Shown: positions 6,463 to 59,366 of the stretch, one piece after another
Numbering within the stretch: position 1 is the first letter of the stretch
Layout: every line of letters starts with the position of its first letter
Source: Bugula neritina
Lineage: Eukaryota; Animalia; Bryozoa
Assembly: GCA_964035545.1 (NCBI GenBank)
Contig: OZ037766.1
Location: forward strand, 11,150,722-11,214,721
Length of the DNA: 64,000 nt
Reading direction: 5' to 3'
Made by a program: the position numbers and the translations under genes
The notes under the pieces: generated by a model
The model's input: only the letters and a program-made list of their open reading frames with translations
Database searches by the model: none
What the model was told of the DNA's origin: nothing

Positions 6463-6872
6463 TGTTGTGATTTTGTGGATTATAAGAATAGACTAGTAGT
6501 CTGCATGCCAGTTATTGTGATAGAAATAAAGAGTCTTGATTAAAATGAATCTATGAGTATTTATTACTTCTGACTGCTTCGAGCTCCAGTACAAGAATGA
6601 ATTGCTTTGGAAAAACTTCGCACTTATATAGGGGGAAATTCCCGCCACTTAATGAGGGACCGAAACTCGTGCGAACGTCGGAGTTCCGCCGACCGACATC
6701 GGAGGAAGACCTGCCCGATCTCGGGCAGGCCCCTCCGATATCGTGTCTTCGGCCTCCGACTTCGCACGAGTCTCGGTTTACATATAATAATAATAAAAAA
6801 AAAGAAACGAGTGCGAGGGAATATAACTCTAAATAAAACAAGGACATGGTATATTTGCGCGAATCTACAACA
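6463..6872 (-). repeat. 3' LTR (410 bp)
   Basis: Identical to 13916-14325 except G6818 versus A14271. On the - strand there is TATATAAG at 6630-6623 and AATAAA at 6565-6560. Confidence 0.97.
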
Positions 6873-7040: not shown

Positions 7041-10000
7041 TCAGTTGCGACGGTCACCTCTGCGGCCCTCGAGCCTGTCCAGGCGGCGGCGAACAGCGTG
7101 GAGGTCATCCTCCAGCCGGCGTACCTGCCGGCGCAGCCGGAGAACCTCAGTCTCATGGGGGCATCGTGCTGGCACTGCTGGGGTAGGGGTGGAACCCGGG
7201 ATCCTAGGGTCCTGGCGCCTCCGTCTCTTGTGGCCGGCTACCTGCTGGGCTCTCTCTCCATTCCCGTCGACCCTAGCCAACACAACCCGGAGAGGTCGGG
7301 TGACAGCTGGCTGGGCCGCAGGTGGTGCCTCGTCGTCAGTAGCATCCTGTGTTGGGCGGCATGCCGGAAATCCCTGGGCGAGTGTCGCCCGTTTATGGGG
7401 GTCGCCGATGTGAGGGAGAATCAAGTCCCGGAATTCGGGAAATGTCGCCTCGTCGACAACAAACACCTGACCCGTGTGGTAGCGGGCTATGCGCTGGTGC
7501 CTCAGCACGTAATCTCTTTGAAAAGAGAATTCGCCACACGGGCAGAAGACGTTGGCATAATGTTGGGGCACGTGCACCCGCAGTCGCCTGGTAGTAGTAA
7601 ACCTTTTACTACACTGGCGGCACTTGCGGTTGCCGGCCTCTCCACAGTCCTGCTCTATCCTAGCACGGGTCTCTGCCGTGGTCCAGTGGAGGCGCTCCGT
7701 CAAGATGTGGGGGAGAGCTAGCTGCTGGTAAGGAGGCTCGTCCTTCAACTGAGGGCCCTCACCGGACGGGGAGCCGTCGGTTGGAGGGGGGGTACCTGCT
7801 TCCGGCTGGGTGGTGAGCGTAGGCTCTGGTGCTGGAACCTCGAGCGGGCTGGTAACAGCCGGGTCGGGAACTGTGGTGGCCGGGGAGTCGATACGACTCG
7901 ACCCGACCTCCTCACATTCCATGGCTTCTGCAATAGAAAACAGAGAGCTTGGTGACCTGGCCGTAGGAGTGCCGAATTTCGGCATCTCCTTGTAAGGCAC
8001 TCTTTGACACATGGGTAGGTCAGGTGATAGCCGAAGAGACACCCGTCCAACCTCCTGGTCTAGCAGGTAGTCGTGGACTGGGGACTCTTCTAAATCGTCC
8101 TGACCTTTGTGATCAAAGAACAGCTCATTTTCCCACTGATAGTCGGGTGAAAATGAGTCTAGAGAGCTACTACACTCCGTGAAGGGAGGTTTTAGTAAGC
8201 TAGAAATACCTGATATCGTAGCGAGCTGGGTTTGTTTAACTGTCACAGGCTCCATATCTGTCAAATTTTTCAAATTGAGTTTAAAATAGCGTGCTGTATC
8301 GTTCAAAGTTGAAGTGCAAATGGCCGAGTTTTGATTTTTAATTTTAAAACTCGTGCGATCGCCGATCACGTGACTGGTCAAGTGGTCAATTAAATTAGAC
8401 AACTCCGGGTGTCGGGCCGCCTCCGAATTTCGGTCTCGATTTTCTTGGGTAGTCAGTGTGTTTATGGTTGATCTGAGGTGACAGTCTGAATTCGAGTCCA
8501 GTTGGGGGTAATGATTCGAAGGGTGAAGTTCAGTCATGCACCCCACGTGATAATCAGCCAAATAACCCGGTGGTTTCTTGTCTCTTTTCCCTCTCCCCAG
8601 AGTGAGGTTGGTAGGGTTGCTTGGTTGATGTGGGGTGTCTGGTGGAGGCGGTATATCGTCTGGGACAGGCGTCGGCGGCAAGGGGAGGTCCTCTGGGGCC
8701 GGTGTTAGCGAGGTGGGTGTCTCTGGTTGGTTGGTCTGGCTGGGTAAATCATGGGTGTGTAGAGCGGGTGGCAGGCTCCGTGGGGGGGCGTCGGAGGTGT
8801 CTTGGACTTCTCTGGGGTCACGAACAATTATTTCCCACTCTCGGGGTTGATTCCTCCTCCCACAGGAGATGGGCTGTCGTGCTGGTTCCAGCAGTGGTGG
8901 TGCCTGTCCCGCGGCTTCCGGGCTTCCGTGGTAAGGTTTCAACCGCTGCTCGTTCTGAACAGATATCTGTCCTGAGCGTTCCACACGATATGTATGGTTT
9001 GGTAAAACCTCTACCACGCAATAGGGCCCGACGAACTTAGGCTGTAATTTAGCCGATTGTCCGCGCCGCCTGCGGTAGCTGACCATCCACACCCAGTCTC
9101 CTTCGCGATACAGAGGCGGTTCCTCGGAATCTTCTGTTCGTACCAGCCACTGTTTCTCTCTCAGTGCGTCATGAGCTTTCTTCATGGTTTCGACTAACTT
9201 TCCCACGTACTCATGTACTGGGAATTCTGGGTTAGGAATGTGGTACGCGAGGTGTTCTGGTACCCTGGTTTCTCGGCCCAACATCATCAGATTCGGTGTT
9301 TCCTGTGTGCTGGAGTGGGGGGTGCTTCGGTAGGCTCGCATAATCTGTGGTAGCATGACGTCCCACTCCTCTTGACTCCTTCCCAACAAGAGGCTCCGGA
9401 GAGCATCACCCAACATCCGGTTGTTTCTCTCTACTACTCCGTTCCCTTGGGGGTGGTACGGAGTAGTCCGGCTTTGATTCACCCCCCATACTTGGCAAAG
9501 GTCCTTCAATAGTTGCGACTGAAATTGTGCCCCTTGGTCAGTGTGAATCTGCTCGGGTAGGCCGAAGTAGCAGAACACGTGCTGGTCCAGGACCCGAGCT
9601 ATCGTGGGTGCTGATGCGTCGGGGATAGCCAGGGCGTCTGCCCACCGCGTGAAATGATCTGTTAAGACCAGAATCCAGGAATTCCCCCTCTCTGTCGTGG
9701 GCATTGGTCCCACAAGGTCCACGGCTACGACCTGCCAGGGTCGGCCGGCGTACAGCCGGCGCCGACCCGTGGTTTCGGTGGGGCGCCCGTGTTTGCTGGC
9801 CTGACAGACTTCACAGTGCCGAATTCTCAGTCGCACATCCCTGGTCATCCCGGGCCAATACCATCGCATCTGCAGGCATCTGATGACCTGACTGGCTCCC
9901 GCATGGGCCTGTTTGTGGGTGTCCCAGATGATTTCCCGACGGAGAGCGCGTGGGCATATGACGCGATCCCTTTCTTGTTGCCGGTTGTCTGCTGCGAGTG

Positions 10001-12944
10001 TCATCGTCAGGAGACCGTCTGAACGAATCTGGAGAGAATTCCAGCGGCGGCAGAAGAACTGAAACTCAGCGTCTCCCTGCCGTTGCTGTTCCTCCGAGGG
10101 TCGTCTGCCTTCTCTCTTGGCTCGGAAGATGTCAGCTACTGATCCAGGGAGTGTTTCTTGCAGTCGACACAGCTCCTTGACGTTCTGGTACAGTGTGGGG
10201 TTAGCACGGAGTGCCTGGACGTCGTCTGAGTGGGTTTCAGGCCGAAGATGGCCGTGCTCCCAACGATAGACGTTGCCGTCCCCCAACTGTGCCTCGACGT
10301 CAAGGCGGGCAGGTCCCCCATCACGTCTCTCGATGTGCAGGCATTGCTTGCAGTTCTCTACCGGTCGGCGACTCATGCCATCAGCGTTCCCGTGTTTCTT
10401 GCCGGCACGGTGCTCTATCCGGTAGGAAAACTCAGCAAGAATCTCTAGCCAACGGGCCACCTGACTCGAGGGCTCTGCACGTTTACTCAACCATATCAGT
10501 GATGCATGGTCTGTTCGCAACCGGAACGTTCTTCCATACAGATATGGCCGAAAGTGCTTGACCGCCTTGACTACTGCTAGGAGTTCCTTCCTAGTGGTGC
10601 AGTAGTTTTTCTCGGCGGCCGCGAGAGTCTTGCTGTAGTAAGCCACGACCACCTCACTTCCACCCTGGACTTGAGACAGAACAGCTCCCACACTGTGGTC
10701 GCTGGCGTCGGTGTCCAGGATGTATTCTTTGGCTGGATCAGGATACGCCAGAATCGGCGCCTCCATTAGCCGTTGTTTGAGGTGGTCGAATGCCTGCTGC
10801 TCCTCCTGTGTCCACTGCCACCGGACTCCCTTGGCGGTTAGCCGATTCAAAGGCTGAGCCACCCCTGCAAACCCGGGTACGTACTGCCTGTAGTACCCTA
10901 CCAGGCCCAGGAATGCCCGCAATTCAGAGAGGTCCCGGGGGACGGCCCACTCCTTCACAGCCTGTACCTTCTCCGGGTCGGTAGCGACCCCGTCACGGCC
11001 AACCACATGGCCCAGGTACGTGACTTCTTGCTGTAGGAGTGCACACTTGGAGGGCTTCAACTTCAGTCCAGCAGCCCGGAGTCGGTCAAAGACCTCCCGC
11101 AGACGACTGACATGAGTCGTAAAGTCTGGGGAGATGACAATGACGTCATCCAGATAGATTAGGAGGGTCTTCCAGTGTAACCCACTGAGGACCTGCTCCA
11201 TGAGTCTTTGGAAAGTTGCCGGGGCGGACGTAAGTCCAAACGGCAGTACTTTCCACTTCCAGAGCCCATCGCGAGTAATGAATGCTGCTTTGTCCTGAGC
11301 ATCAGGACTGAGGGGTACTTGCCAGTACCCGCTAAGCAGGTCCAGAGTACTGAAGTACTTGCTACCCGCGAGGGCATCCAGAGACTCATCTATCCGCGGG
11401 AGGGGGTAAGCGTCCTGGATGGTAACGCTGTTGAGTCTGCGGTAGTCCACACAGAACCTCCAGCTACCATCCTTCTTCTTGACCAGGACTACTGGAGAGC
11501 TCCACGCACCGTGGGCAGGCTCAATCAGATCCCGGTCGAGAAGATCTTGCACCTGCCGGCTCACCTCCTTCTCCTTCTCCGGGCCCAGACGTCGGGTTGG
11601 CTGCCTGATGGGAGTGGTGCCAGCTGCCAGGGGTATCTCGTGGGAGATAACCTTAGTCAGCCCCATATCTTCATCACCATGACTGAAGACATCACTGTAC
11701 TCCGCGAGTAGTTGAGCCAGTGTTTGGCGTTCAGTACTACTCGTACAGTTTCCACACGCTCCACTGTACAAGCCAGCCACATGCTCCGGGACTGCTTCTC
11801 GGTGGTTGTGAGGGGGGTTTCCCTGGGTGTCGGTCACTGTTTCCAGTGCCGGACCCACATCCGCCTCATGGATGGAGTGGTACTTCCCCACCAGTGCACC
11901 AGCCGATAATCGGACCGATTCCGCAAAGGGGTTGATGCATTGCACGAGGAGCTCTCTTCGACAGTCCAGCCGATTTAGGCTGTTTGCCAGTTGAATTGCT
12001 CCGTGCGTTCCCTCCACCACCCCCAGTGCGGCGATCTCCTTGCAGTTGACCCTGCATCGGAGAGTAGCCTGGGATCTCCCTGGAATCGTGCAGTCCTGCA
12101 CTACCTGGACTCCGCCCACCAAGGGCCTACCAAACTTGTCCACACAGGCAAGTTCCTTCCCAGCCATCACCACCGCCGACTTCTGGAAATCCATGTGACA
12201 CTGGTGTTTTTCCAGAAAGGGCATTCCCAGAATGGCGTCTTCCTTCAGGTGGCTGACAATGAACGTCTCGTGAATTACTTGATCACGGACTCGTCCAGGT
12301 AGTGTGATAATGCCGTAGAAGGGGATACACGATCCGTCCGCCAACGTACCGTGTGCCCCTTCGTACGGCTCGAGGCTCGCCCGCTCTCGGGCACCAAGGG
12401 TGCCGAAGAGACGCCGACTTAGCAGGTTTGTAGTGCACCCTGTGTCCAGCAGGAAGGTGGCAGCTTTACCCGAAATTTTTCCGGGCAGGAAGTAGCTGCT
12501 TCCATACGGCTGGGTGCTCCTGGGTCGGTCAGTCTCTGGGGGGGACACCTCTTGGGTCCTTACAGCGGGCCTCCTCTTCGTCTTACAGACAACGGGGGTT
12601 TTCTGAGGCTGGGAGGGTAGCTTGGGATACTCTTGCGAGTAAGCTGATTCTTCCTCCACAGCCTCTTCGGGCAACCCCGCGAACCGGTTTTGGAGTGGCC
12701 AGGCCGGAGGATCGGGTAAACCTTGCGGTCTCCGAGATCTCCGAGGTGCCTGCCATCCTGCATCTGGGAGTCCCATCCGGGTCGTAGGTGGCTGGGTTGG
12801 AGAGTCGGGCAGACCTTGGGGTCTCCGACGTCCCCACGCAGCCTCGGCTGGCCTGGAAGAGGCTCCCTGGGTCATTTCTTCCCGGATGGGGTTGGCTGGT
12901 GGCTCACGGTTGGCGGAGGTTACCGCGAGCCCCGGGTGTTTAAA
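7041..12944 (-). CDS. pol: Pol polyprotein (protease, RT, RNase H, integrase) with a long C-terminal extension; probably entered by -1 frameshift from gag
   Basis: Motifs: LLDTGCT (protease), LPFGL and YLDD (RT), DTDASD...KELLA...TDH (RNase H), H..H..CEVC, VDLVGP/TDQGAQF/NGVVER (DDE integrase), KFVGPY. There are no stops over 1985 codons. The ORF-track start at 12998 is GTG, not a credible initiator. Confidence 0.96.
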   Translation of the reverse strand, partial: FKHPGLAVTSANREPPANPIREEMTQGASSRPAEAAWGRRRPQGLPDSPTQPPTTRMGLPDAGWQAPRRSRRPQGLPDPPAWPLQNRFAGLPEEAVEEESAYSQEYPKLPSQPQKTPVVCKTKRRPAVRTQEVSPPETDRPRSTQPYGSSYFLPGKISGKAATFLLDTGCTTNLLSRRLFGTLGARERASLEPYEGAHGTLADGSCIPFYGIITLPGRVRDQVIHETFIVSHLKEDAILGMPFLEKHQCHMDFQKSAVVMAGKELACVDKFGRPLVGGVQVVQDCTIPGRSQATLRCRVNCKEIAALGVVEGTHGAIQLANSLNRLDCRRELLVQCINPFAESVRLSAGALVGKYHSIHEADVGPALETVTDTQGNPPHNHREAVPEHVAGLYSGACGNCTSSTERQTLAQLLAEYSDVFSHGDEDMGLTKVISHEIPLAAGTTPIRQPTRRLGPEKEKEVSRQVQDLLDRDLIEPAHGAWSSPVVLVKKKDGSWRFCVDYRRLNSVTIQDAYPLPRIDESLDALAGSKYFSTLDLLSGYWQVPLSPDAQDKAAFITRDGLWKWKVLPFGLTSAPATFQRLMEQVLSGLHWKTLLIYLDDVIVISPDFTTHVSRLREVFDRLRAAGLKLKPSKCALLQQEVTYLGHVVGRDGVATDPEKVQAVKEWAVPRDLSELRAFLGLVGYYRQYVPGFAGVAQPLNRLTAKGVRWQWTQEEQQAFDHLKQRLMEAPILAYPDPAKEYILDTDASDHSVGAVLSQVQGGSEVVVAYYSKTLAAAEKNYCTTRKELLAVVKAVKHFRPYLYGRTFRLRTDHASLIWLSKRAEPSSQVARWLEILAEFSYRIEHRAGKKHGNADGMSRRPVENCKQCLHIERRDGGPARLDVEAQLGDGNVYRWEHGHLRPETHSDDVQALRANPTLYQNVKELCRLQETLPGSVADIFRAKREGRRPSEEQQRQGDAEFQFFCRRWNSLQIRSDGLLTMTLAADNRQQERDRVICPRALRREIIWDTHKQAHAGASQVIRCLQMRWYWPGMTRDVRLRIRHCEVCQASKHGRPTETTGRRRLYAGRPWQVVAVDLVGPMPTTERGNSWILVLTDHFTRWADALAIPDASAPTIARVLDQHVFCYFGLPEQIHTDQGAQFQSQLLKDLCQVWGVNQSRTTPYHPQGNGVVERNNRMLGDALRSLLLGRSQEEWDVMLPQIMRAYRSTPHSSTQETPNLMMLGRETRVPEHLAYHIPNPEFPVHEYVGKLVETMKKAHDALREKQWLVRTEDSEEPPLYREGDWVWMVSYRRRRGQSAKLQPKFVGPYCVVEVLPNHTYRVERSGQISVQNEQRLKPYHGSPEAAGQAPPLLEPARQPISCGRRNQPREWEIIVRDPREVQDTSDAPPRSLPPALHTHDLPSQTNQPETPTSLTPAPEDLPLPPTPVPDDIPPPPDTPHQPSNPTNLTLGRGKRDKKPPGYLADYHVGCMTELHPSNHYPQLDSNSDCHLRSTINTLTTQENRDRNSEAARHPELSNLIDHLTSHVIGDRTSFKIKNQNSAICTSTLNDTARYFKLNLKNLTDMEPVTVKQTQLATISGISSLLKPPFTECSSSLDSFSPDYQWENELFFDHKGQDDLEESPVHDYLLDQEVGRVSLRLSPDLPMCQRVPYKEMPKFGTPTARSPSSLFSIAEAMECEEVGSSRIDSPATTVPDPAVTSPLEVPAPEPTLTTQPEAGTPPPTDGSPSGEGPQLKDEPPYQQLALPHILTERLHWTTAETRARIEQDCGEAGNRKCRQCSKRFTTTRRLRVHVPQHYANVFCPCGEFSFQRDYVLRHQRIARYHTGQVFVVDEATFPEFRDLILPHIGDPHKRATLAQGFPACRPTQDATDDEAPPAAQPAVTRPLRVVLARVDGNGERAQQVAGHKRRRRQDPRIPGSTPTPAVPARCPHETEVLRLRRQVRRLEDDLHAVRRRLDRLEGRRGDRRN
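12901..12944 (-). promoter_or_regulatory. Programmed -1 ribosomal frameshift signal (U UUA AAC + 6-nt spacer + 10-bp hairpin)
   Basis: The gag frame reads CCT TTA AAC ACC CGG GGC TCG CGG TAA and the -1 frame is pol (..FKHPGLAV..). Stem GGCUCGCGGU/ACCGUGAGCC lies at 12931-12901. Confidence 0.85.
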
Positions 12945-13843
12945 GGCATCCTTCTTTCGTGAGGGCATTGCCTTCGTACATGTCCCCTGGCACCACACCC
13001 CCAGCAGGTGAGGTGGGTAGTACCGGCTGGTTCACCCCGGGGTCGGGGGTTTCGTTTATCAGCCTGTTCTCTCTGCATCTGTTTCATCTCTGCCTGCAAT
13101 CCCTTTACCATGTCCATCAGCATGGTCATCTGGTCAGGTGACGAAGTAGTAGCAGCCGCCACGGCCTGTGGGTTTGGCTGATCCGGCTTAGCGACTTCGG
13201 GTCGTTCCTCAATCTGACAAGCGGTGAAATCCGCACATTGAGGTCCCTCCACTTGGTAGGAAGCCTTGCCCAGGGCTAAGGCTTCCTCTATAGTGGTGAC
13301 CTTGGCTGCCAAGTAATAACGCTGTAGTCCAGGGTTATTGATTGTGTGGAAGAAGGCTTCATACACAGCACCTCTTTGTGCTGCCGGTGTGTCGTCGCTA
13401 TGGGCTACTGGTACTAGTGCCTCAATAGCGTTCGCATGGTCTTGGAGTGAGGTCTTCCGGTCTCGGCGTATGGTGCGCAATCTGTCCCTGGCGGCGCGGG
13501 CGGTTAGCCCGAAACGCGACCTGAGGGCCTGAAAGATGTGCGCTGTATTGGGTCCCAGAGCATAACTCTTTGCCTGACCTGTCAGACAGGTACGGAGGTG
13601 AAGAAGGCGCACCGGTGCCGGCCATTCGGCGAGGGTGGCTACCTCTTCAAACTCCCTGATGAATTGCTCTATGTCCCCATCGCCTCCGAAAATCGGGGGC
13701 CTCAGGCGATACCTGTCTCCAGGTGCTGCCTGCCCGGCCTTGCTGACCTCCCGGAGGGCTGCGATGAGAGTCTCCATGGTGAGACGGTCCCCTTCTCCTT
13801 CTTCTTCTCCTTCTACCATGACTTCTTCTTCTTCGTCCCCCAT
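12920..13843 (-). CDS. gag: Gag (307 aa) with CCHC zinc knuckle
   Basis: ATG lies about 50 nt after the PBS. Capsid-like segment PPIFGGDGDIEQFIREFE...LRTCLTGQA and nucleocapsid knuckle CWGCGARGHVRRQC. Confidence 0.95.
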   Translation of the reverse strand: MGDEEEEVMVEGEEEGEGDRLTMETLIAALREVSKAGQAAPGDRYRLRPPIFGGDGDIEQFIREFEEVATLAEWPAPVRLLHLRTCLTGQAKSYALGPNTAHIFQALRSRFGLTARAARDRLRTIRRDRKTSLQDHANAIEALVPVAHSDDTPAAQRGAVYEAFFHTINNPGLQRYYLAAKVTTIEEALALGKASYQVEGPQCADFTACQIEERPEVAKPDQPNPQAVAAATTSSPDQMTMLMDMVKGLQAEMKQMQREQADKRNPRPRGEPAGTTHLTCWGCGARGHVRRQCPHERRMPLNTRGSR

Positions 13844-13895: not shown

Positions 13896-13914
13896 AATCC
13901 CACCGCTGCCACCA
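13896..13914 (-). other. Primer binding site complementary to tRNA-Leu
   Basis: The - strand reads TGGTGGCAGCGGTGGGATT 1 nt inside the 5' LTR, complementary to the ...AAUCCCACCGCUGCCACCA 3' end of metazoan tRNA-Leu(AAG/TAG type), recalled from memory. Confidence 0.9.
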
Positions 13915-13915
13915 A

Positions 13916-14325
13916 TGTTGTGATTTTGTGGATTATAAGAATAGACTAGTAGTCTGCATGCCAGTTATTGTGATAGAAATAAAGAGTCTTGATTAAAATG
14001 AATCTATGAGTATTTATTACTTCTGACTGCTTCGAGCTCCAGTACAAGAATGAATTGCTTTGGAAAAACTTCGCACTTATATAGGGGGAAATTCCCGCCA
14101 CTTAATGAGGGACCGAAACTCGTGCGAACGTCGGAGTTCCGCCGACCGACATCGGAGGAAGACCTGCCCGATCTCGGGCAGGCCCCTCCGATATCGTGTC
14201 TTCGGCCTCCGACTTCGCACGAGTCTCGGTTTACATATAATAATAATAAAAAAAAAGAAACGAGTGCGAGAGAATATAACTCTAAATAAAACAAGGACAT
14301 GGTATATTTGCGCGAATCTACAACA
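13916..14325 (-). repeat. 5' LTR (410 bp)
   Basis: Direct repeat of 6463-6872 with one mismatch. Confidence 0.97.
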
Positions 14326-19031: not shown

Positions 19032-22000
19032 TCACATTTCAGTTTCAATCCTTTGCCGAGTCATGCTAACAATATTCTGCATGGCTTCAGGTTTCAACAT
19101 TTCATAAAGCTAAAAATAGATTACAGCTATTAGATATTACGTTACATATATTATATAGTTAACCCATTGAGCTGCGGCACTTCAACTGTGAATGTTAGCA
19201 AAAAAGCTAACAGAATTAAACTTACTACTCAAGTTGCATGATTTTAAGATATGACAATAAGATAGCAAATTTTTGAAAATTTCGTTCATACAGCAAGTAA
19301 CGACCAGATCTAAATGAATATCATTACCTGATATTGTGAAGATGCTTCATAAGCGTAGTATACACTTGTATCGTAAAGCATCATTTTATATTGAGCCAAA
19401 CACAGAATAGAGTTTCGCATACGCACCATAGCTTCACGCTCTTGCTCACTAATAGGCTGTAATGAAGACAAATGAAAAAAGTAACATTTTTTGACACAGC
19501 TTTAAACATTCTGGTTACGATTCTAGACTCAAGAGTAAGCATAACCAAATTATCTCACCAGCAACTGACTGCAATTATACAAACTGCTCCTGCATGCCTA
19601 AGGCTGTCCAAAAAATGAAATGCAAAACTAAAGCTATTTTTAATTTCAATTTTCATAAAGTACCAAGAGTTGTCTTCTTTCGAGAACTTCAGAAAGACAA
19701 TTAAAAAGCAACTTGTTTCAGTAAGATTTTAGGGCACATATAAAATGTGCCCTACAAACAACTCAGCAACTTTATGCTAGGATCAACACAAGATGACCAA
19801 TAATTAGTTGATTTATATATTTTTCTACAAAAAGGGCAAACAAGAATAACTAAAGTCTTCAAATAACACTTTAGTTTTATTCAAAGAGTATACTAAAAAC
19901 AAAAGAACAAATTGCAGCAATGCATTTGCAAGCAGTGCAACATAATACCTACATCAAGTCTCTGAACAAATCCACCCTCGGCACCCTCACTAGACTGGAG
20001 AGGACATATCCATATGTACCCATTGTTTCCAAGAATCACCGTAACACCACACGGCAGATTATGGAAATGGTTTTTACATCTTTTCACTAATGATGGGCTA
20101 ACTTTCACAAGAATTCCTTGACCCAACTAAAATTCAAAAATATTTTGCTTAGTTAAAGATATTTATAAAGCACAATGAAACTTATCTAGAAATATTTTAT
20201 AAACGCCATCCAATGTAATACATGAACACATATATTTCTACCAAGCCAAGTTTGAATATAAATTTTAATTCTGTTCAAATCTAAACCTGGGCATCTATAC
20301 ATTACTGAATAAATACAAAAAACCAAATTAAATGCAGTTTTATTTAGCCCATGACATTCTACATAAAAAATACAAATAGATGCAAACTCCGAAAAACATA
20401 TAACACCAATTACATGTCCAGCCCTCATTTAAAACAAGTTCTAAACTTTTCCACGTATTTCAAAACATTTAATCAACGCTTGTAGAATTCATGAAAACCA
20501 AAACCAGCTCTAAAGAGGCAGCAACCTGTAGAATGACTTTTAAATATAACTATATAGTTGACACTCCCATATTTTACAAGATTCACTTTGCTTCTGCATA
20601 GCTACCTTGCCATACTTCAAGCTCCTAGTATGTAAAGATAGATGTCCATCACTGTACACAGTTTGCACCTCTGCACTGATTAGATCACCTTCCGACAAGT
20701 ACTCTCTCATCATCCGCTCATCTTCTTCGCTTCTTTTTCTCTAACCAACAAGCATTGTAGTAACATACAAGCGATGAATTAACTGATATAAAAAAAGAAA
20801 CTTTTTATAATTGATGAGAATAATGCCTATTATTGATACTTAGCCCCTGATAAAATATGACTTATCTTGAGTTTAAAGGCGGTAAGCTTCCAGGTTATTT
20901 ATTACATTTGAGCAAAAGTTTGCATGCTTTTCAACTGTTTTATCAGCATTTTATCCAATTTCTTATACGAAAACACTACAAAAATGTAAGTAAAAGTGGT
21001 CATATTAGGTGTCTTGGACTTGCCCAGACTTGCCCGCGAGCGTGCCCTCCGTGTCCTATTCTGACGTGGGGATGGCAAAATAGCCCTATTGTAGCGTGAG
21101 TTTATATCGCGTAAAGTTATTAAGAAGCGGGTTTGTCACAGATTCTCGTTATTCGTAGTTCAAATCACATGAATGTTACTCTTCGGGCGGCTACTAATAA
21201 CTAACGTTAGCTACGCAACATCAAGAAAGGTAACTAATTTGACTGTTTTCAAATGGACTATTCCATTTCGCTAGTTTGTAACTTGCTGTAAATCACAAAA
21301 TAATTATTTTCCCTATTTTAATTTCAATTATCATGTCGACCACACTACCAGAAAATTACTCTTAAATATGCAGTAAATGATGATTTTCAACCGTTTTGTG
21401 ATGAATTATAGGTTAGTAGTTGTCTACGTAAAACCAAGTTTTAAAATTTGTAACTGAATCAGTGAAACTAAATCACAGTATCAGTATGACTATGAGTATC
21501 ACTAGTCTATCACTATGACTATGAGTATGTCTATGACTCTCACTCTAACTCTAAGTCTATGACTGTCGCCTATTGGTGAACTATTATTAATAATATTCAA
21601 TGGTTATATTTATTAATACTATTATCAGTCATAATGATAATCATAATCATATGACAGTATCAGTTACGGAGCAGAATCAGTTTCGAAACTATTACTTATA
21701 ATATTAGTTATAACTATAAGTATAAGTTATACCAATAGCTATATTTATATTAATATAAATATTTATATTCATAGTAATACTAATAACAAATGTAAAATTA
21801 TTATGTTAATAGTTATACTTGTAAGTTATAATATAAAACAAACGACACAAGTATTAATTTGAACTGCTGGTCTTAAAATAAAAAGTAAAATAAATAATAA
21901 TATAAATAATAAAATATAAATTATAATAATTTAATTATACTAATACTAATAGCAATACTTATACAGTAATATAATTATAATAAATTTATAAAATTTAAAC

Positions 22001-25000
22001 AACTTTAAATTTAAGGAACAACTTTAAATACAAACAAAGATAATATTAAATAATTATAATCATAATGATCATAACAATAAATATAATTATGATTCCAATA
22101 ATTATCAATATATTATATAATATTTAAATTATTTTAATTTATAATTATAATCATAAATTGTATAGTTATAGTGAATAAATTCAATTTGACATAACTATAA
22201 TATTATAAAGCAGTCAGCCTATCTCTAATTCTGATTGAAATTCAGATTGTTATGACTGTATCATTATTCACTAACTCTAAGAGTAAGTGGCTACAATTAT
22301 TAGTATCAATGTTGTGTTAGAGTACTATACCCATTGGAATTTTGATATATCCATTATATTTACAACTCTGCCTGTTACAGCTATTAATAAATTGAACCAA
22401 AATACCAACAGTGCCTAATCATCGCCTTATTTATAAAATAATCACAATCATAATGCTCAAGTTAATAGATTGGAAATTATTGAAAATTATGTTGATGCCA
22501 ATATAAATATGACATTGTATGCATCCAAGTAGTGATGTTGTAATATATCTTGGAAGATAATTACATTATAATAAGAGTTAAATTCCTCTAAGTAACTTTT
22601 TTGCAATTATTCCTTAGAATAACTATAACTTATACTCCTAACATTTAATAGCGCATTAGTTTTAGATTGAGCTACTAATTGTATTTATTGCATGTGAAAG
22701 TTAGTTATTCTCCGCCAGCTGCATGAATGTGACTGGTAAATTTTGTAACCTTTGGCAGTAATAACTTTGTAGCATAAATTAGACACATTTTTATGAAAAT
22801 ACATAATTTTAATGCTATAGCTGCTAGTAATTCTAATGGGTGTAATAATATTACTTTCACCAGCATTAATTTTTACTTTGTTCATGCTTCATAAAGCGTT
22901 TTCTAAATTCTTTTTTGAATAAATATACATATAATGTGCTGAATAGATTACATATGTTGGGGTTCTTCCTATACTGCAGCTCAGCCTACACTCCCCGCCA
23001 CAAATGTTCCTAAACTACTAGCTTCATCAGGATACAGATTGATGGAGCTGTATTGATAAAAACTTCTCTTTTTAGCAGTAGAGGCATCATGAAAAAAAGG
23101 CAAGTATTTTACTCAATAAGAATTCGGTTTTTTACTTCTACAAATTTGATAGCCTACACGATTCTATTTAAATGGAAACTGGTCTGACATAATGTGTCTG
23201 CAATTTATTAGTTATAATATAGTAAATACTATGCAGGCCTATAGATCAAATGGCTCAAAAAAAATTAAATAAAACATTACACAATGCTGTATTTATTAGC
23301 AATGTAATACTTAGCAACTAATTTCACATTATCATTGTTTGCAAAGTTTTATATATCTACATATGTTTGTTCAATTCAGTGTTCTGAAGTAGAAGGTTCC
23401 AACAGCAGGGAAAAGCCTTGAACAAGATATTATGTTCTACATCTCCAACTCATTTTAACTTTGCTGGTCAGTTCATTGTGTATCTGGAGCATAGTTTTGT
23501 ATTTTCAAGTAGTCCATCAGATACCTTTGTAGGTAGTAAAGATTAAAATGTTTGTGCAATGATGTCCATAATGTTGAACTGATTTATTGAAACTAAAACT
23601 GTTCTTAATTATAACAAAACTTGACAATCTTTACATAAAGAATAATGTCCTATAATCTATCTTCATTGTAAACAAAATTAGAAAGTTCCACATCAGCAAA
23701 TTGTTTATCATCATCTGTAGGTGGAAGAAGCTTGCACTCAGTTATAAAGGCAAGCTGACGGTGGTTTTCTTTGCCTTCTATGAAGATTTGGAAAGAGCCA
23801 GAAAATTAATACTCTATAACTGCAAAACCATGTTGTAGTGTCTTGTGTTATTGATTGAATCATCTAAAAGAAAAATTGTTGTATCATTATAATTTTACTG
23901 TTAATGAATTAGCAAATCTACTTATCTTGGTAAATATATTCAAGAACAAATACTATAGTGTAACTCAGTTTTGGTTATGTGTATGCTCCTTAAGCAAATT
24001 TACAGCAGATATCAAACTATATATTAGAGACTGATATAGGAATTAAATTTAAGCTAACCATGATGATGTAAATAGCTGTTGTATGTGACTTCGAGAACTC
24101 TGCTGGCCATGTCAGTTCAAATACACCAGGGTGATCTGTTACGAATTTCATGTCATTATTGAAATTCAGCTTTTTCAAGTGCCTCTTCACAACTCTGGCA
24201 GCATTCTGACTGCTCCTTAGCTTTCTGCGCCTGAAATTTCTTCTACTTGCACCATTCTTCTATTGGTGGAATGTTAGCCTATAACAAACAGGTGTACCAA
24301 AGCTAAAAAAATATCTAATTCACTGCACTAGGATATTATTCAACTCATTTAAATTTAACATATAGCAGTAAAACAATCACATAATTGTTTTTATTTTATC
24401 AGCTTTACTTTACAAAGCTGAACCATATAATTTAGTAACTTGTCACCATAATAAACTTTGTACAACATACAAATTGAAAACCTGATGTGATTGCTTTTTT
24501 AATAGAATATACATCAAAAACATGTTACTTTGATAAGCGTGTTTATAATAAAAGTATTAAACCAGTTTGAAAAGATTATTTTGTTATATAAGGGATCACA
24601 AAACTACATCATTTTAGACCTGTAGCTCAATGTTCCTCAAGCAACGGGCTGCTATGACTAATTAATTTTCTATCATTGCATTTGATTGTTCTACTCATAG
24701 TGTATTGGCGAATTAAAATTATTGGTAATTTAATGTATATTTTAGCTACCTCTGTACAATCAATGTCATAGTAATATCAATTAGGTTTTAAATTTCACTG
24801 AGTTTATAGTAAATTACTGCAACCGTTACATAACATTTGGCTAGTTCTCTAGTTCATTAAATAACCATACGAACTTAAATTTACAACATGACAAAACACA
24901 CAAAGCAAAATTAAAATAAGCATATTATGAACCAATGTAAATGATAAGCGATAATGCTGTTATAAAACATAAATTATCAAATTGAAATAGTTATTATTAC

Positions 25001-27753
25001 TATTAGTATTACTATCATTATAACAACTATAACTATTATTAGTATTACTATTACTATTAGTATTAGTATTAGCAAATTAGTAGTAAAAAATGAGTAGAGC
25101 TCAACATATACAATCTAGCTTACTATAAAAGTAGAAGTAGAACTTTTAAAACTATCATCTGCATCATTATCAGAACTATGAGTAATACTAGTAGTTGTAC
25201 TAATAGTAATACTAATTATTAATACTAATAGTATCACTATGAGTATGAGACTTGGGCTGGCAGTGATTATCAGTATCAGCATCGTCATAGTCAAAAGTTA
25301 CAAGAATTAGAAGCCATATTCATATTCATAGTAATAGTCAATCATTGATTGAGTTAATGTCATAGTGATACTCATACTCATAATTAATTTATACGATACT
25401 CATACTCATAGTGATAGTGATACTTCACCGTGAATTTAATAATAATTTTAATTTAATATAAATAATAAAATATTATTATTAATATTATCATTGTTGCTAA
25501 TATTATGTCTTACTCTTAGTCTAACAGCAGCTCTATGAAGAAGTTAAACATAACTGATAAAACAAATTTCAAAAATAATACTGCAACAATCAATATAATG
25601 TATATCAAATTCAATATGCTAGCAACCTAATTTTCAGCTCACTTCATTAACTTTCCGTGCAGTATTGTGAATTGTGATGAAATAAATTTATTAATGGTGA
25701 CCTTGACATCTTCGTCCAAATGCCTTTCACGTCAAGCCCCGAACCAATTTGTAAAAATTTTGGATTTTTTACTTTTGATTATTTTTTACGAAAAGAGCTT
25801 CAAAATAAATTTAAAAAAAAGTGAGCTGTTGTCCACATGAAAAGAAATATATGAGCTAATTTTCTAAATTCAGGAAGTTACCAGAGGGTCACAATATTTT
25901 TTTAAAAAAATCTTTATTTTCACGACAAGCTCTATATATTAATATAGAAAAAAAGAAGACAACTCTTTTTTCAGATTTTTCATGTGCCACGGTCACGTCA
26001 ATATCAGTGCTATTAACACATATATTTTAATTCATTTTTTCTGGTATATTGAGTTGAGATTTTTTGTATATATTTTGTGAATGCTACTAAAAAAGTATGA
26101 TCTTTTAATTAACAGTAATTGATTTTATCAAAATAACCTGGATGCTTACGATGTTTAAGGAAATAACAAAAAGTTGTCAAATAGCAAACCAAACAATATA
26201 GTTTATGCCATTCTATAATATTTCTAAAGAGTAGTATTTATACAATCTATTATATAACATACTTCATCAGTTAAATCACACCTGCAAATATTTCATAATT
26301 GAAATTGAAATTAAGAAAATATATATGAAAAACTTTTAGAACTAGTTGCTTTTAGAAAAAAGACAATAAAGAAAAATTAACCTAAACTTGCATACAACAC
26401 AATGTGTTTCATTTACTACATAGTAGCATTGCTAGGCTGGGTTAAAGGTTTTTATTAGAACTAATTTTTTAATATCTTAGAATTAAAGCATATGAAAGAC
26501 ATTGAATTAACTGAAATCACTTTTTGCTAACTTGAAAAAAGATAATCAAAACTTGTAACAAAGGAATCTTTACAAGGTTTGAGTTACAGATTCCATTACA
26601 TTTTAGCAAGAGTACACAACTTGAACAAAATCATATCATTTCATGGTAAAATATACAAAACTGCTTCTCTGCTTATATAGTTACTGAGTCTTATCTAATT
26701 CTAATTTAAGAGCTTGTAATTTTCACTATCAATTACTAAAAATTGCACTTGATAATAAACTAAATAATACACTTAAATATTTTTGCAAGTTCTTGTTTAT
26801 GTAATTCTTAAATAAGAAGACTTCGGAAAATTTTTCAACATTTTACTAAAAAACTCATGAGTGGGCAACTGTGCGGTGACTATCAATATGCGAATTAAAG
26901 TGTTTAACTACCGAATAATTGACTTGTCCCAAATTATTGTGATTGTCAAATGATTTTTTCCTAAGTTAAACTGTTGCACAAGATTAACATTGTACATCGA
27001 GTCAGGAAAAATAACTGTAACTGCGTCTCACCAATTCTCCACCCGGGAGATTGACACAAGATAGAAGTAAGACGGAGTCCAACACTGTGTGGGCATCTAC
27101 TTTCCAACGCTTGTTGCCAACTTCTGTAATTCGGCCAATCACCACATCTCCAACTTCACCAATATACCTGAGGAGTACACACAGTATTGAAAGTACACTG
27201 CAGAGCAGCAACAAAGCGATGAACAATTCTGCTAGTTGATTCTGCACAAAAAACTGTGAGTTTAAAAAAAACCTATGCTTTTACAAACTGCATGCGAACA
27301 CAAGTAGTTAAAAAAGGACTGTTAAATTAACTGTTTTGACTATACTAACCTGGTTTTTAAAGGACGAACACATATTAATTTGTTCACCCTTTCAACACAT
27401 CCAGCAACAGACGCTAAAATTTTTCCTTCATCAACATCAAAATATGTGCCATGACCTCTGAAATTAATACAATTTTTATTGATAAGTGACACGTTTCAAC
27501 AACATAATTAATAAATTTATAGACAAACAATTTTTCACAAACTGAAGATAGCATCTAAACAACAACATCTAAACAACAATTAAATTTACAGAGAAGAATA
27601 TTAATATACCAATAGGTAGCAACAATTGCTAGACCTCATATAGCCCGAGTCCTTTGAAATCAAATCTCCGGGATTAACCTGGTGCATTGTTTTATCAGAA
27701 GGTAGAACAGCTCTAGATTTTCTGTTGGCAGCTAACCGTATATTGAACTCCAT
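19032..27753 (-). CDS. EXOSC2: Exosome complex component RRP4, 7 coding exons (27753-27635, 27457-27350, 27167-27032, 20740-20606, 20126-19953, 19456-19328, 19109-19032), 292 aa
   Basis: MRGHGTY...ASVAGCVERVNKLICVRPLKTRYIGEVGDVVIGRITEV...RWKVD...NLPGGELRKRSEEDE...LHTRSLKYGKLGQGILV...ILGNNGYIW; exon phases are consistent. Confidence 0.96.
20850..26000. pseudogene. Probable old transposon-derived insertion with decayed exon-like coding segments in EXOSC2 intron 3; boundaries unresolved
   Basis: The intron is 6.3 kb versus 0.2-0.5 kb for the gene's other introns. There are CpG-richer patches at ~21030-21230 and ~25700-26000, and - strand AG..GT-bounded segments (~24280-24060, ~23865-23400) with long reading stretches broken by stops. 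Confidence 0.45.
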
Positions 27754-29150: not shown

Positions 29151-32100
29151 ATGAGTGACCGAGAGGTATGCATCCTGAACCTGTAAAACTAGAACATCAT
29201 CATCATGATCAAGTTCAACACGAAGTGAACATCAACATGTCCTCGAGTGATCATGATTTTTTTTAACTCAAATTGAAATTAAAATTTAATTTCATAGTAA
29301 TAGTCGTGTTGTTATTAATATATTTACCATTTTTTGTTAATTTGATTGTCAAAAATATTACTAATCTTAGGTAAAAGTTTAAGGAATTGAAAGTTTAAAT
29401 AAAAATCAAAATGTCAGTATGAGTATCAGTATGACTGTATGACTATGAGTATGAATATCACAACGACTCACGAGTCATGTTGATGTTCTGTGTTCATGTT
29501 GACAATTGTCATTGAAATTTAAAGTTATAGTTATGCTCGTAGGGCACTACACGAGCAATTGAAGTTGTTAAATTAATGGTATTAATTATGATAATCATTG
29601 TTATCACTCTTAGTTTTATTGTTTAAATTATACAATTTGAATTATATCTATTTTAAATTCGTATTTCACTGTTTTAAATTTGGCATTGGCTGTGCATGAT
29701 GTTACTGTTAGTGTGGCATTTCAAATTGGTATCTTCAATTGACAGCCTGAGTGTGAGTTTGACTTTGAATTTTTGCAGTGAACTGGTATCAATATGAATA
29801 TAAGAGTCAGTATGACATTGGACTTGGTGTTTTTTGTTTGTTATAATAACCTAATATAAATAAGTGATTAGGCTAACAGTAACAGACACACTCACCGCAA
29901 GTAATTAACTTTTGCAATAGTTATCAATAATAATTACATAATTTATTACAGATTAACTCGATCAAAAGTGTAAAATCTGAGCTTTGTTGATAATGACATT
30001 TTCAAACTTGAAAACAAATTTCAATGTATAAAGTCAAAGATAATTTTGGTTTTGCAAAGGCTCACTCATGCAAGCCCAATCAATTATAGATAATTGCATT
30101 TCAAGGACTCTTGCATCTAAAGTTATAAAAAATACATAGAAGTACGGTCTAAGTTTTATAGAGTTTTTTAAATTTTTTCAGGATGTTCATTTCCATTGAA
30201 AAAATTTCAAAAAGCTTTTTTCTAAAAAATTCCCTTTTCAAAAACAAACAAATAGCTACAGCAATTTATCCTGTTCACGTCGTAGATCAAATAAAACATA
30301 TAAATATCATGGTAATTGTTTTTTTCATGTGGCTGATCTCTTTCCAGTAATAGCTTGAGTGTATCTAGATTCTAGTATCATAACTGTCAACTATAATGAA
30401 TACCAAAATTGTATAAGTTATCATTTATTTGTAGTTTAAAGACTTTAGTATATCTCTTCTCATTGAATCAGTGCGTTTCTTTATACATTTATATTGTGTG
30501 TTTACTTGAACAAAGTTTCCAAAACAACAAACCTAGAAGTTTTTGTCTATTTAATAAATATTGCGCTTCAATAAATTTGCTGATTTATATTGTCAATGTT
30601 AACTTTATAGGACCGCCGATCTAACAGTCGCTCAAGGACGCGATCCAGGTCTAGAAAACGATCGGTTAGTCGTGGTGCGAGATCATACAGTAGATCTAGG
30701 TATAAATGTTATACTTTTTAATTTGTTAATCCATTTTTCTTTGAATGCTTTTCATGTGTCTTTGTTACTTTTTGTGTCCTTTGTTATTATCACAAAAGAT
30801 AAAAGTAGGCTGGCTTTAAACAAGAGGGTATATTCTTGGATATAATAAAAGGTTGAAAGTGTCAACTCAAATTACTGATACATAAATAATAAGTAATTGT
30901 TTTGCCCTTTCATGTCAGAGACTTTATTTTTGTAATACACCCAATCTTCAATGTTAGATGAATAGACGGAGTAAATTGTTTAAATTTTCCTAATATACCA
31001 ATAGTCCTATACTAGTCATTTAAAGAATTTTATCACTTGAAATATTTATGTGAATTTCAATTGGTTTTCTTATTTACAGATCACGAGATCGAAAGTCAAG
31101 AAGCAGATCTCGAAGGAGAAGGTAGACATACGTTTTGTATAACTTATCACTCTGTTGTGTTAATGACTCAAGGATGCAATCCAATTTTTATGCTGTTTAA
31201 TTTGTTTGAAAACACATATTTTAAATTTTGCTTATGCTTGCTACAAAGTTTTATGACAGATAATGTGTGCTAATACATTGGATTTTGCCAGGTTTTGTAA
31301 CTTTCTGTAAACAAAACGTTGGCTTGTTATTTCCAATCTTAAACTATATTGTGATATGTCATGTAAACCTTTGTGGTAGCATTGAGTGCGTTGGAATGAG
31401 TATGACTACTAAGTCGGAGATGTTGTATTTGAAGCTACTCAAGGAGCAGAAGCAGGAGTGCAGACAGGGGTGGCCGTGGAGGAAGACGTCCCAGAGATCG
31501 ATCTCACTCACCCATGTCTAGCAGACGTCGCCACCGAGGTAACCGGGATGACCCCGATCCTAATCGATGTGTCGGTGTGTTTGGCCTGAGTTTGGATACC
31601 CGAGAAAGGGAAATTGAGGTGAGGCTTACATGCAGCCATATTCAGAATTTATTATTCTCTAATACTCTCTCAGAATTTTATAAAACTTTCAACTTTTTAT
31701 GTTTATATGTTAATTATTTGAGATGTTGTTTTATTTGTATTTACAATATTTTGCATGGGTAATGTATTTGTAGGAGTTCTTTGGAAAATATGGCCGTATT
31801 GCAAACTGTCAACTAGTTCATGATAGACATTCTGGTAGATCAAGAGGCTTTGCTTTTGTTCATTTCGAAGATGTTGAGGATGCTATTGAGGTACAGCATG
31901 AGTTCCGGGATTTGAATAATTTATTTTGAGCTTTCATAAAAAAAACTTATTTCTTGTTCAGATTATATTAATGTTATGTATACAATGACTGTTGGCTGGT
32001 AGGCTAAAGAGAATAGTGCAGGAGTGGAGATTGATGGCAAGCCAATCCGAGTGGACTACTCTGTGACTGAGCGAGCTCACACACCTACGCCTGGAGTTTA

Positions 32101-32702
32101 CTTGGGTAAACCAACCACAAGGTAAACCTTTTAGTGTGTGAAGTTTTGTCTTATTTTTATACGAGAAGCTCTGTTGTTTTATTTTTGTAGAATTGTGCTT
32201 TCTGTATTCTAATTTTGTGAACTTTGAACTTGAACACAGTTTAAATTGAGCATGAATTTAAAACTAGGCCAAGCCGAGGATATGGTGGACGCTACGGAGG
32301 AGGAGGAGGAGGAGGAGGGAGTTATGGTGGATATGGAGGTCGATACAGCGGTGGTTACGGTCGAAGAAGGTCACCATCACCATACCGCAGGAGGTCTTAC
32401 GATAGACGGTCTCCCTCACCGTACAGAAGTCGAAGGTATTCAAGGTCAAGGAGCCGATCCTATTCCCCTAGTATGTATCATTTTGTCTAGCATAGAGGCT
32501 TTTTTGTGACCAATGTGTTACTAACAGCTTGCAGTAAATTAAGATCCAAGTTTATCGTGTTTGTTTTACTGTTGATATTTGATATCTAGTTTGATTTATT
32601 TGTTGAGAGCTAGGCTACTTTATAGGCTGATCTAAATCTTAATCAGTTTTCTACTTTCAGAACTTCTATCTCATATTTGTATTTTTTGCAGGGCGTTATT
32701 AG
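29151..32702 (+). CDS. TRA2B: Transformer-2 homolog (RS-RRM-RS), 8 coding exons (29151-29165, 30611-30699, 31080-31121, 31435-31618, 31774-31890, 32003-32121, 32268-32470, 32692-32702), 259 aa
   Basis: [34 protein letters not shown]1 [29 protein letters not shown], a Gly tract, and the C-terminus RSRSYSPRRY*. Assignment to the A or B paralogue is nominal for an invertebrate. Confidence 0.96.
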
Positions 32703-41825: not shown

Positions 41826-55861
<14,036 letters not shown>

Positions 55862-58848: not shown

Positions 58849-58922
<74 letters not shown>

Positions 58923-59366
58923 GTATACGAGAAACATTGTTATTTATTACTTTATTAGGTAAAGTAATTACACTGATATTTCGGGTACCACTGTACCCAT
59001 CTTCAGAGTAGCAATGAATGAAATTCAAAAATTATTATGTTACGTTAGACGTTATGCATGACACAAAGAATAGAGAGTGGCAGTTATTGTAAATTATTGA
59101 AACTTAAAGGAGATAATCTTATTTTATATATTACGCAGGTCAAAAATTATACTGATTTTTTTGCATAAAAAATAAATTAGAGTTGACAAAAAATAGATAT
59201 CCAAATATAACGTAACATAATAATTTTTGAATTTCATTCATTGCTACTCTGAAGATGGGTACAGTGGTACCCGAAATATCAGTGTAATTACTTTACCTAA
59301 TAAAGTAATAAATAACAATGTTTCTCGTATACCTATTTATAATCAAATTGCTAGCTCGTAAAGATA

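Follow-up and report, generated by a model that had tools for sequence, protein, structure and literature searches.

A two-zinc-finger module behind the integrase of a Bugula neritina Ty3/Gypsy retrotransposon: a likely spliced env-position ORF with a possible role in RNA fate

In errantiviruses, env forms an ORF3 at the position that bears its name, and in chromoviruses a chromodomain is located at the C-terminus of the integrase. Few LTR elements have a known route by which their unspliced RNA is exported or escapes nuclear surveillance; CERV is a case restricted to nematodes. This protein is encoded by Cer1 of Caenorhabditis elegans and, according to the accessible part of PMC10309623, derives from a spliced ORF at the env position, is nuclear, is needed for export of the genomic RNA, and has no homologues outside nematodes. 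Extra ORFs at the env position are therefore already known from CERV and from the accessible portion of PMC5408684; what appears to be new here is an ORF3 of the C2H2 type. No description of such an ORF3 in Gypsy elements was found in the literature searched, with supplements, Repbase, Dfam and GyDB outside the search and a note in Repbase being possible. The word 'zinc' is absent from the main texts, as far as accessible, of the mollusc and annelid surveys PMC6238403, PMC8556966 and PMC8220671, and the available parts of PMC10547256, PMC6338049 and PMC11952523 hold nothing relevant to the module.

How does the Bugula neritina locus compare? The window, a stretch of 64,000 nucleotides, contains on its minus strand an intact Ty3/Gypsy LTR retrotransposon that holds a post-integrase module. 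The 5' LTR (13916..14325; 410 bp, TG...CA) and the 3' LTR (6463..6872), which is preceded by a purine tract (polypurine tract, PPT), differ by one mismatch over 410 sites, and the target duplication ATAT lies outside both; the element is young and intact. An 18-nt primer-binding site (PBS; 13897..13914), which we take to be of the tRNA-Leu type, adjoins the 5' LTR and recurs, identical or with a one-letter change, in the relatives L001, L005, L007, L012, L014, L085 and L104. The gag gene (12920..13843; 307 aa, from ORF and Pfam evidence) encodes one CCHC knuckle. Pol is in the -1 frame relative to gag, a slippery heptamer (12938..12944) is followed by a hairpin, and we infer a -1 frameshift between the two. 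Pol (8550..13031) comprises protease, RT, RNase H and integrase in the Pfam order of Ty3/Gypsy (PR-RT-RH-IN), then an SH3/GPY region and a proline-rich tail that closes with PPGYLADY. A single ORF runs from 13031 to 7041 (1996 aa from stop to stop). The sole named integrase match is a Trichuris protein at 33-37%.

The flanks of the element are AT-rich. Elsewhere in the window, intron-split pieces at 19893-27280, 31433-32490, 50545-53863 and 59525-61258 were read as animal genes and resemble an exosome RRP4 subunit, an SR/transformer-2 protein, a kinesin-13 and an RRM protein, respectively. At 58914-59341, between (AT)n runs, two 134-nt arms form a perfect inverted repeat around a 160-nt spacer and resemble a small foldback element. 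Within U3 of the retrotransposon there is a near-perfect inverted repeat of about 120 nt (6659..6777, minus strand; copy 14112-14230), which is unusually long for an LTR and is a candidate cis-acting site. Its folding has a z of -11.75, with none of 200 shuffles as good. None of seven finger-bearing relatives, several of them cut short, has a U3 hairpin reaching z -5. A tie between the hairpin and the finger module was tested and is unsupported, the hairpin not being common to the relatives.

Beyond the YLADY motif, which ends at 8550, the frame stays open for 502 codons on the minus strand, in agreement with a preliminary description that had counted about 500. An open AT-rich linker (8256..8549; GC 0.43, versus 0.55-0.68 in the other coding parts) leads into an acidic, Ser/Pro/Thr-rich low-complexity region with a conserved RVPYKxM motif (7722..8255). 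This is followed by a conserved domain of 124 aa (7350..7721), in which a C2H2 finger and a C-x-C finger are wrapped by flanking helices and a strand. Finger 1 (C-x2-C-x12-H-x3-H) occupies 7622-7560 and finger 2, of the C-x-C type, 7544-7476. A basic patch, HKRRRRQ (7212..7232), is a candidate nuclear localisation signal, with basic runs at the same place in many homologues, and a C-terminal heptad repeat (7068..7148) was modelled as a three-chain coiled-coil bundle. Finger 1, the basic patch and the heptad repeat all lie where the earlier reading had put them. Conservation is concentrated in the 124 residues (7721-7350) and the terminal coil. The net charge is -10 over the first 70 residues of the acidic N-terminus and +7 in the core.

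Finger 1 resembles zf-C2H2_4 at E values of 0.003-0.03, which lie below the curated cut-off, and instead of a TGEKP-type linker there are five residues and a C-x-C second finger. The helices have Arg at +2 and +3 and Val/Ile/Thr at +6. A Cys/His cluster does lie at 7544-7476, as had been proposed for finger 2; the proposed ligand pattern C-x-C-x12-H-x6-H fares less well. Among close homologues the pattern is C-x-C-x12-H-x5-C, the Cys being kept in 71 of 73 scored, and the residue after it is His in 38 of 73. H-x6-H was accordingly rejected as the family pattern: the window copy has Tyr at the position of the fourth-ligand Cys, then His, which makes H-x6-H an individual trait of the window copy. 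Among distant members, either Cys or His takes the place of the fourth ligand.

Hydropathy averaged over 19 residues peaks at 0.69 in the tail, which hence lacks a membrane segment; with no env family found by Pfam, an env identity was rejected, as the preliminary description had also held. A chromodomain was likewise rejected, none being present among 11 Pfam families at E<=1. The tail matches the feature set of a CERV-like export factor in being an ORF at the env position that is non-membrane and has a zinc-binding motif, a basic signal and a predicted multimerising helix. From this anatomy, the module protein is very probably nuclear and zinc-binding.

Is the module more than a chance open frame? 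With the last 404 aa as query, 23 homologues were found, and a profile of the 124-aa core raised this to 99 clusters (90% identity). A full HMMER scan then listed 562 representatives at E<=0.001, 120 of them at E<=1e-10, some of the scan's matches being generic multi-finger proteins. Among the newcomers of the scan, 108 of 133 score at least 40 bits on a broader profile. These numbers bear out the view that the open frame is more than chance. The domain is also covered by no Pfam family, in keeping with the earlier failure to recognise it as a described Gypsy module. Distant members are 25-35% identical and diverge fast outside the ligands, and the ligands are kept in more than 100 clusters and in elements with 47-60% integrase identity. 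Among 20 module-bearing clusters looked up, 18 have no informative name. One related Pol protein (P0160) has a precomputed PF08719 domain. Two others (P0321 and P0341) have protease and finger module in one frame without RT or integrase, and are perhaps non-autonomous derivatives.

No DNA of close homologues was found in metagenome, viral or genome contigs with the core alignment as query, and an integrase query had no match in viral contigs. The DNA evidence thus comes from more distant relatives, with integrases of 31-61% identity and one 71% locus that has no downstream DNA. Of 70 integrase relatives, five carry the module in the same polypeptide and seven end 2-13 residues past the post-integrase motif, many of the others being broken by frameshifts or contig ends. 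The integrase query led to 118 loci. Those numbered L081-L118 are animal-type Gypsy elements in contigs of several GTDB MAGs; such loci are probably animal (host) DNA in the bins.

A tree of 77 integrase cores, made quickly with IQ-TREE, is divided by a split with a support of 90, not starred. One side has 11 rows with a fused module, 19 with fingers in a separate or broken frame, three without and 17 unscored; the other has 27 rows, none scored with fingers. Fingers thus follow the integrase in 30 of 33 scored rows versus 0 of 27, with rows of fewer than 140 aligned residues, most rows with less than 1.8 kb of downstream DNA and most unlabelled proteins left out, and with three rows on the finger-less side, which have single pattern matches in ORFs of 31-52 codons, counted as noise. 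The module profile is clearly matched by 13 loci, the match of L001 being upstream of its element, and L005, L016, L036 and L033 were scored on the Cys/His pattern. On these sequences the module is to be seen as a character of a whole Gypsy branch, and not as the oddity of one element for which it had been taken. A basal group (L037, L044, L082, L083, L085, L087, L090 and L104) has a more ordinary finger or finger pair and weak profile scores, and for this reason may represent a separate acquisition. In L001 (L001:3-1098), a finger ORF is located upstream of the LTR and primer site, and so probably comes from a preceding copy or a permuted assembly.

Is the module an extension of Pol or a gene of its own? 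In L002 and L004, Pol stops 13 residues past the last motif and the module, which begins at a Met of its own, uses a different frame; the same family includes the copies L008 and L021, which are broken earlier. The basal group, eight more distant loci, also has the module as a separate ORF. Among close homologues, 23 of 101 start at one Met, which suggests a separate ORF as read from proteins, not DNA. Conversely, the frame is open from integrase to module in the window, in P0001 (63% identity) and P0006 (42%), both fused, and in P0141/L011, P0146, P0148, P0149, P0157, P0201, L005, L007, L024 and L025; in P0307, P0315 and P0318 it is open from the post-integrase motif into the module.

A predicted splice acceptor that is strong by a simple score (7920..7945, minus strand; AG 7929-7928) precedes an ATG at 7922 (GCCATGG), with a predicted product of 293 aa. 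It is the best of the internal region by that score and lies five bases before the start, an ATG chosen after the acceptor had been seen; none of 204 pol ATGs reaches a score of 8. Four homologues (P0002, P0003, P0007 and P0077) start at the corresponding Met. A weaker acceptor upstream (8253..8259, minus strand; AG 8259-8258) precedes an ATG at 8255, with a predicted product of 404 aa; its score of 4.0 is reached by 14% of pol ATGs, and the Met is aligned in seven close homologues. The best consensus score for a donor over about 14055-12925 falls within gag (13573..13581, minus strand). This candidate donor (13578) is in phase 1 and in frame with both acceptors, and would yield a Gag-fused product, as in CERV.

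Does the arrangement recur? Acceptors were called by a home-made score, with a threshold fixed after viewing the data, in one representative per family, two family pairs being sisters. Of 64 in-frame ATGs that lie past integrase and before finger 1, 13 have an acceptor no more than 10 nt away; for pol ATGs the figure is 8 of 302 (p 3e-6), and for ATGs out of frame in these intervals it is 10 of 137 (p 0.008). An acceptor plus ATG is present in 11 of 18 families, where 1.6 or 4.0 would be expected (P 2e-4 by simulation with the stricter null); in L012 and L017 a single break was tolerated between the ATG and the finger. The arrangement is found in four of the seven families with clear profile matches. 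No such signal is present in 7 of the 18, including the separate-ORF family L004. The phase of the acceptor differs among families and the ATG follows closely, which fits a non-coding leader. In addition, P0103 diverges from P0015, and P0113 from P0044, at residues compatible with such an acceptor. Among the sequence joints examined, from contigs of one study, none is a junction at the candidate acceptors. The acceptor at 7928 is probably used. Given the excess of acceptors with an ATG and the separate ORFs, the module is likely an env-position ORF3 expressed from spliced RNA and not an integrase tail; the preliminary description had treated it primarily as an extension of Pol, a view that the own ATG behind an acceptor and the separate ORF in several related families do not favour.

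Sequence variation in the tail differs between core and linker. Among the matches listed (40 of 167), from contigs of one study that possibly include the source sample, there are 39 variants in the tail. Those listed for the core comprise six synonymous and four non-synonymous changes, and those for the linker one and eight. No listed tail variant is a stop, and the small deletions at 7250-7252 and 8141 are each confined to a single contig. The linker thus appears to be under little amino-acid constraint; it probably forms the 3' end of an intron that is removed from the subgenomic RNA.

The terminal coil suggests that the protein multimerises. The motif R-h-x-x-h-E is typical of trimeric coiled coils and is present in 25 of 55 homologues with a heptad end, versus a mean of 1.9 in shuffles, which destroy the heptads. 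A three-copy model scores 0.72 against 0.02 for the best control (contacts agree at 92%; pLDDT 72), in line with the trimer-type coil proposed earlier; this score may reflect likeness to solved coiled coils. In calibration, 21 of 30 pairs from microbes and 17 of 29 from eukaryotes attained the mark, whereas no single chain did (0 of 23 and 0 of 30, respectively). On balance, a trimeric module protein is somewhat favoured by the modelling.

Could the module work in its fused form and direct insertion by tethering the integrase to chromatin or DNA, as the chromodomain does in chromoviruses? The open frame from integrase to module in the window and in other fused proteins and loci is what such a tether would need. 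By contrast, other families of the same branch have a separate ORF, an own ATG with an acceptor is present even in fused forms (the window, L007 and L005), and the linker is little constrained in its amino acids. Integrase assemblies are dimers or tetramers, with which a trimeric coil fits poorly. The module's own ATG behind an acceptor and the separate ORFs make tethering less likely, and we regard it as quite unlikely; the same evidence makes a role in RNA fate more likely.

What do predicted structures indicate? The core model has a pLDDT of 95 with all five models in agreement, and a pLDDT of 90 in two of five with a shallower alignment. Foldseek found nothing at E<=0.001 for the core against the PDB and viral models. 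VIA-align gave a best Z of 3.9-4.2 over finger residues only, the best superpositions being on tandem fingers in complex with DNA (Kaiso, Z 4.0-4.2, rmsd 2.7-3.0 over 57-58 residues), and the flanking helices and strand had no structural match (best Z 4.2 overall). Fold searches with these models therefore demonstrate neither a new fold nor a known one. The Atlas structure neighbours of the homologue P0113 are the finger pairs of ASCIZ/ATMIN and plant IDD/STOP/WIP proteins, at TM 0.15-0.21 and under the bar of the tool, and a JACKDAW match has E 0.2, below significance; PF24759, PF24761, PF22995 and PF23115, of the ASCIZ/IDD type, are absent among the Pfam matches listed.

These superpositions raise the idea that the same spliced ORF3 is a DNA-binding transactivator, the fingers of which would read the U3 palindrome while the coil multimerises and the acidic region activates. 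The Kaiso matches, the weak resemblance of P0113 to ASCIZ/ATMIN and IDD/STOP/WIP proteins, the acidic N-terminus joined to a basic core, the Arg residues at helix +2/+3 and the length of the palindrome are all consistent with it. However, the matches are confined to 50-58 residues of the fingers, have low Z values and come from a library in which DNA-bound fingers abound, the TGEKP linker is absent and helix +6 is Val/Ile/Thr, the palindrome is not common to the relatives, and a motif of the ARS2 type described below is left unexplained. A transactivator is thus unlikely, if less so than a tether.

The module also occurs in host-like proteins. Two named homologues are EB796_004208 (P0113) from Bugula neritina and XP_067944745.1 (P0277) from Watersipora subatra. 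P0113 has in common with P0103 an N-terminal piece of 64 aa, 77% identical and with VKxE motifs, which in the two proteins leads into different finger cores, the joints falling at residues that would suit a splice acceptor; the two may stem from a host gene whose alternative finger exons derive from an element, or may be co-opted copies. The Watersipora protein is an annotated host protein with the domain behind a non-element N-terminus, and P0202 has two tandem copies of the domain. These last two proteins may reflect domestication or a host origin of the domain. The presence of the domain in annotated proteins of both bryozoans is what one would expect if a host finger exon had been captured as a passenger. 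The conservation of the ligands across clusters and elements already largely refutes this reading, and the element is young and intact with start and splice signals kept, so that a mere passenger can practically be dismissed. The same host-like genes in two bryozoans could fit an anti-silencing factor that binds the element and blocks repression by host small RNAs or heterochromatin, as could the fast divergence outside the ligands in distant members and an anatomy predicted to be nuclear, multimeric and nucleic-acid-binding. Against this, Pfam found no known suppressor domain, and we consider such a factor very unlikely.

Which function is favoured for a putatively spliced, nuclear protein? 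In 12 of 59 distant members, the pattern [ED][ED]GE[LIV] occurs upstream of the fingers at a distance of at most 200 residues (mean 0.2 and maximum 2 in shuffles). It is absent from the window protein, from all of 68 close homologues and from all of 72 module-less Pol tails. Six of the seven matches across 160,467 aa of locus ORFs fall within the module, in three families. According to the accessible part of PMC9402713, where the same relaxed pattern [ED][ED]GE[ILV] was used, this motif binds ARS2. This motif, the precedent of CERV and the need of a spliced element to export its unspliced RNA led us to choose a role in RNA fate over the alternatives. We propose, with a probability of about 0.45, that the module is a spliced, env-position, trimeric, nuclear two-finger protein that controls the fate of the element's RNA, as CERV does for Cer1. 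The last step of this proposal, a role in RNA fate as opposed to another nuclear role, has an even chance.

In the proposed mechanism, unspliced RNA would serve as genomic RNA and spliced RNA would encode the module protein itself, of 293 aa or 404 aa. This protein, with its acidic arm, finger domain, basic signal and coil, would be nuclear and trimeric, and would act on the element's own transcripts, sparing the unspliced genomic RNA from splicing or decay and promoting its export. A minor Gag-Pol-ORF3 product might also be made through the -1 frameshift. Control of RNA fate is ranked ahead of LTR transactivation, followed by integrase tethering and anti-silencing. It is opposed by the lack of the ARS2-type motif in the window subfamily and by finger superpositions of the DNA-binding type. 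A purely spliced gene is opposed by the frame that is open from Pol through the linker in the window, in P0001, P0006 and eight more proteins, and in loci of four families. The preliminary description had suggested an element-encoded nuclear accessory protein. That much holds for a conserved and probably nuclear protein; of the roles, tethering is lowered and RNA fate, which had not been listed, is raised.

It is tempting to go further and to regard a large, old branch of marine-invertebrate Gypsy elements as 'complex' retrotransposons, in which, instead of env, a spliced, multimeric zinc-finger regulator belonging to an undescribed domain family would govern RNA fate, in many members through ARS2 and the cap-binding complex, with the domain co-opted in bryozoan hosts. 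This wider proposal is tentative and somewhat unlikely in full. A branch-wide zinc-finger accessory gene with a defined predicted splice site, a foldable domain of 124 aa and a host-binding motif in many members would nevertheless make the question of RNA export testable beyond model insects and nematodes. Gene models annotated as 'C2H2 protein' in such animals may be retrotransposon ORF3s or their derivatives.

Like the window element, chromoviruses have an extra folded domain after GPY/SH3 in the Pol frame; the window module lacks a chromodomain and has a start codon of its own, and in several families it is not fused to Pol. ASCIZ/ATMIN and the plant IDD/BIRD, STOP and WIP proteins also have a C-x-C finger five residues after the first finger, whereas all matches to them are below significance and the flanking helices and strand of the module match nothing. 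The likeness to CERV is by description, CERV being absent from the homologues in the 404-aa search, the core-profile search and the HMMER scan. As described in the accessible part of its source, CERV has a C4-type loop, H/M/G domains, a hexamer model and exons in the gag frame, in contrast to the C2H2 plus C-x-C pair and three-chain coil modelled here. The env-position ORF3s of the bdelloid types, as far as the available portion of PMC5408684 goes, are env, GDSL esterase, DEDDy exonuclease, transmembrane or coiled-coil proteins, the words 'C2H2' and 'finger' being absent there; like the module, they follow pol, and they are typically a separate unit expressed from a spliced message.
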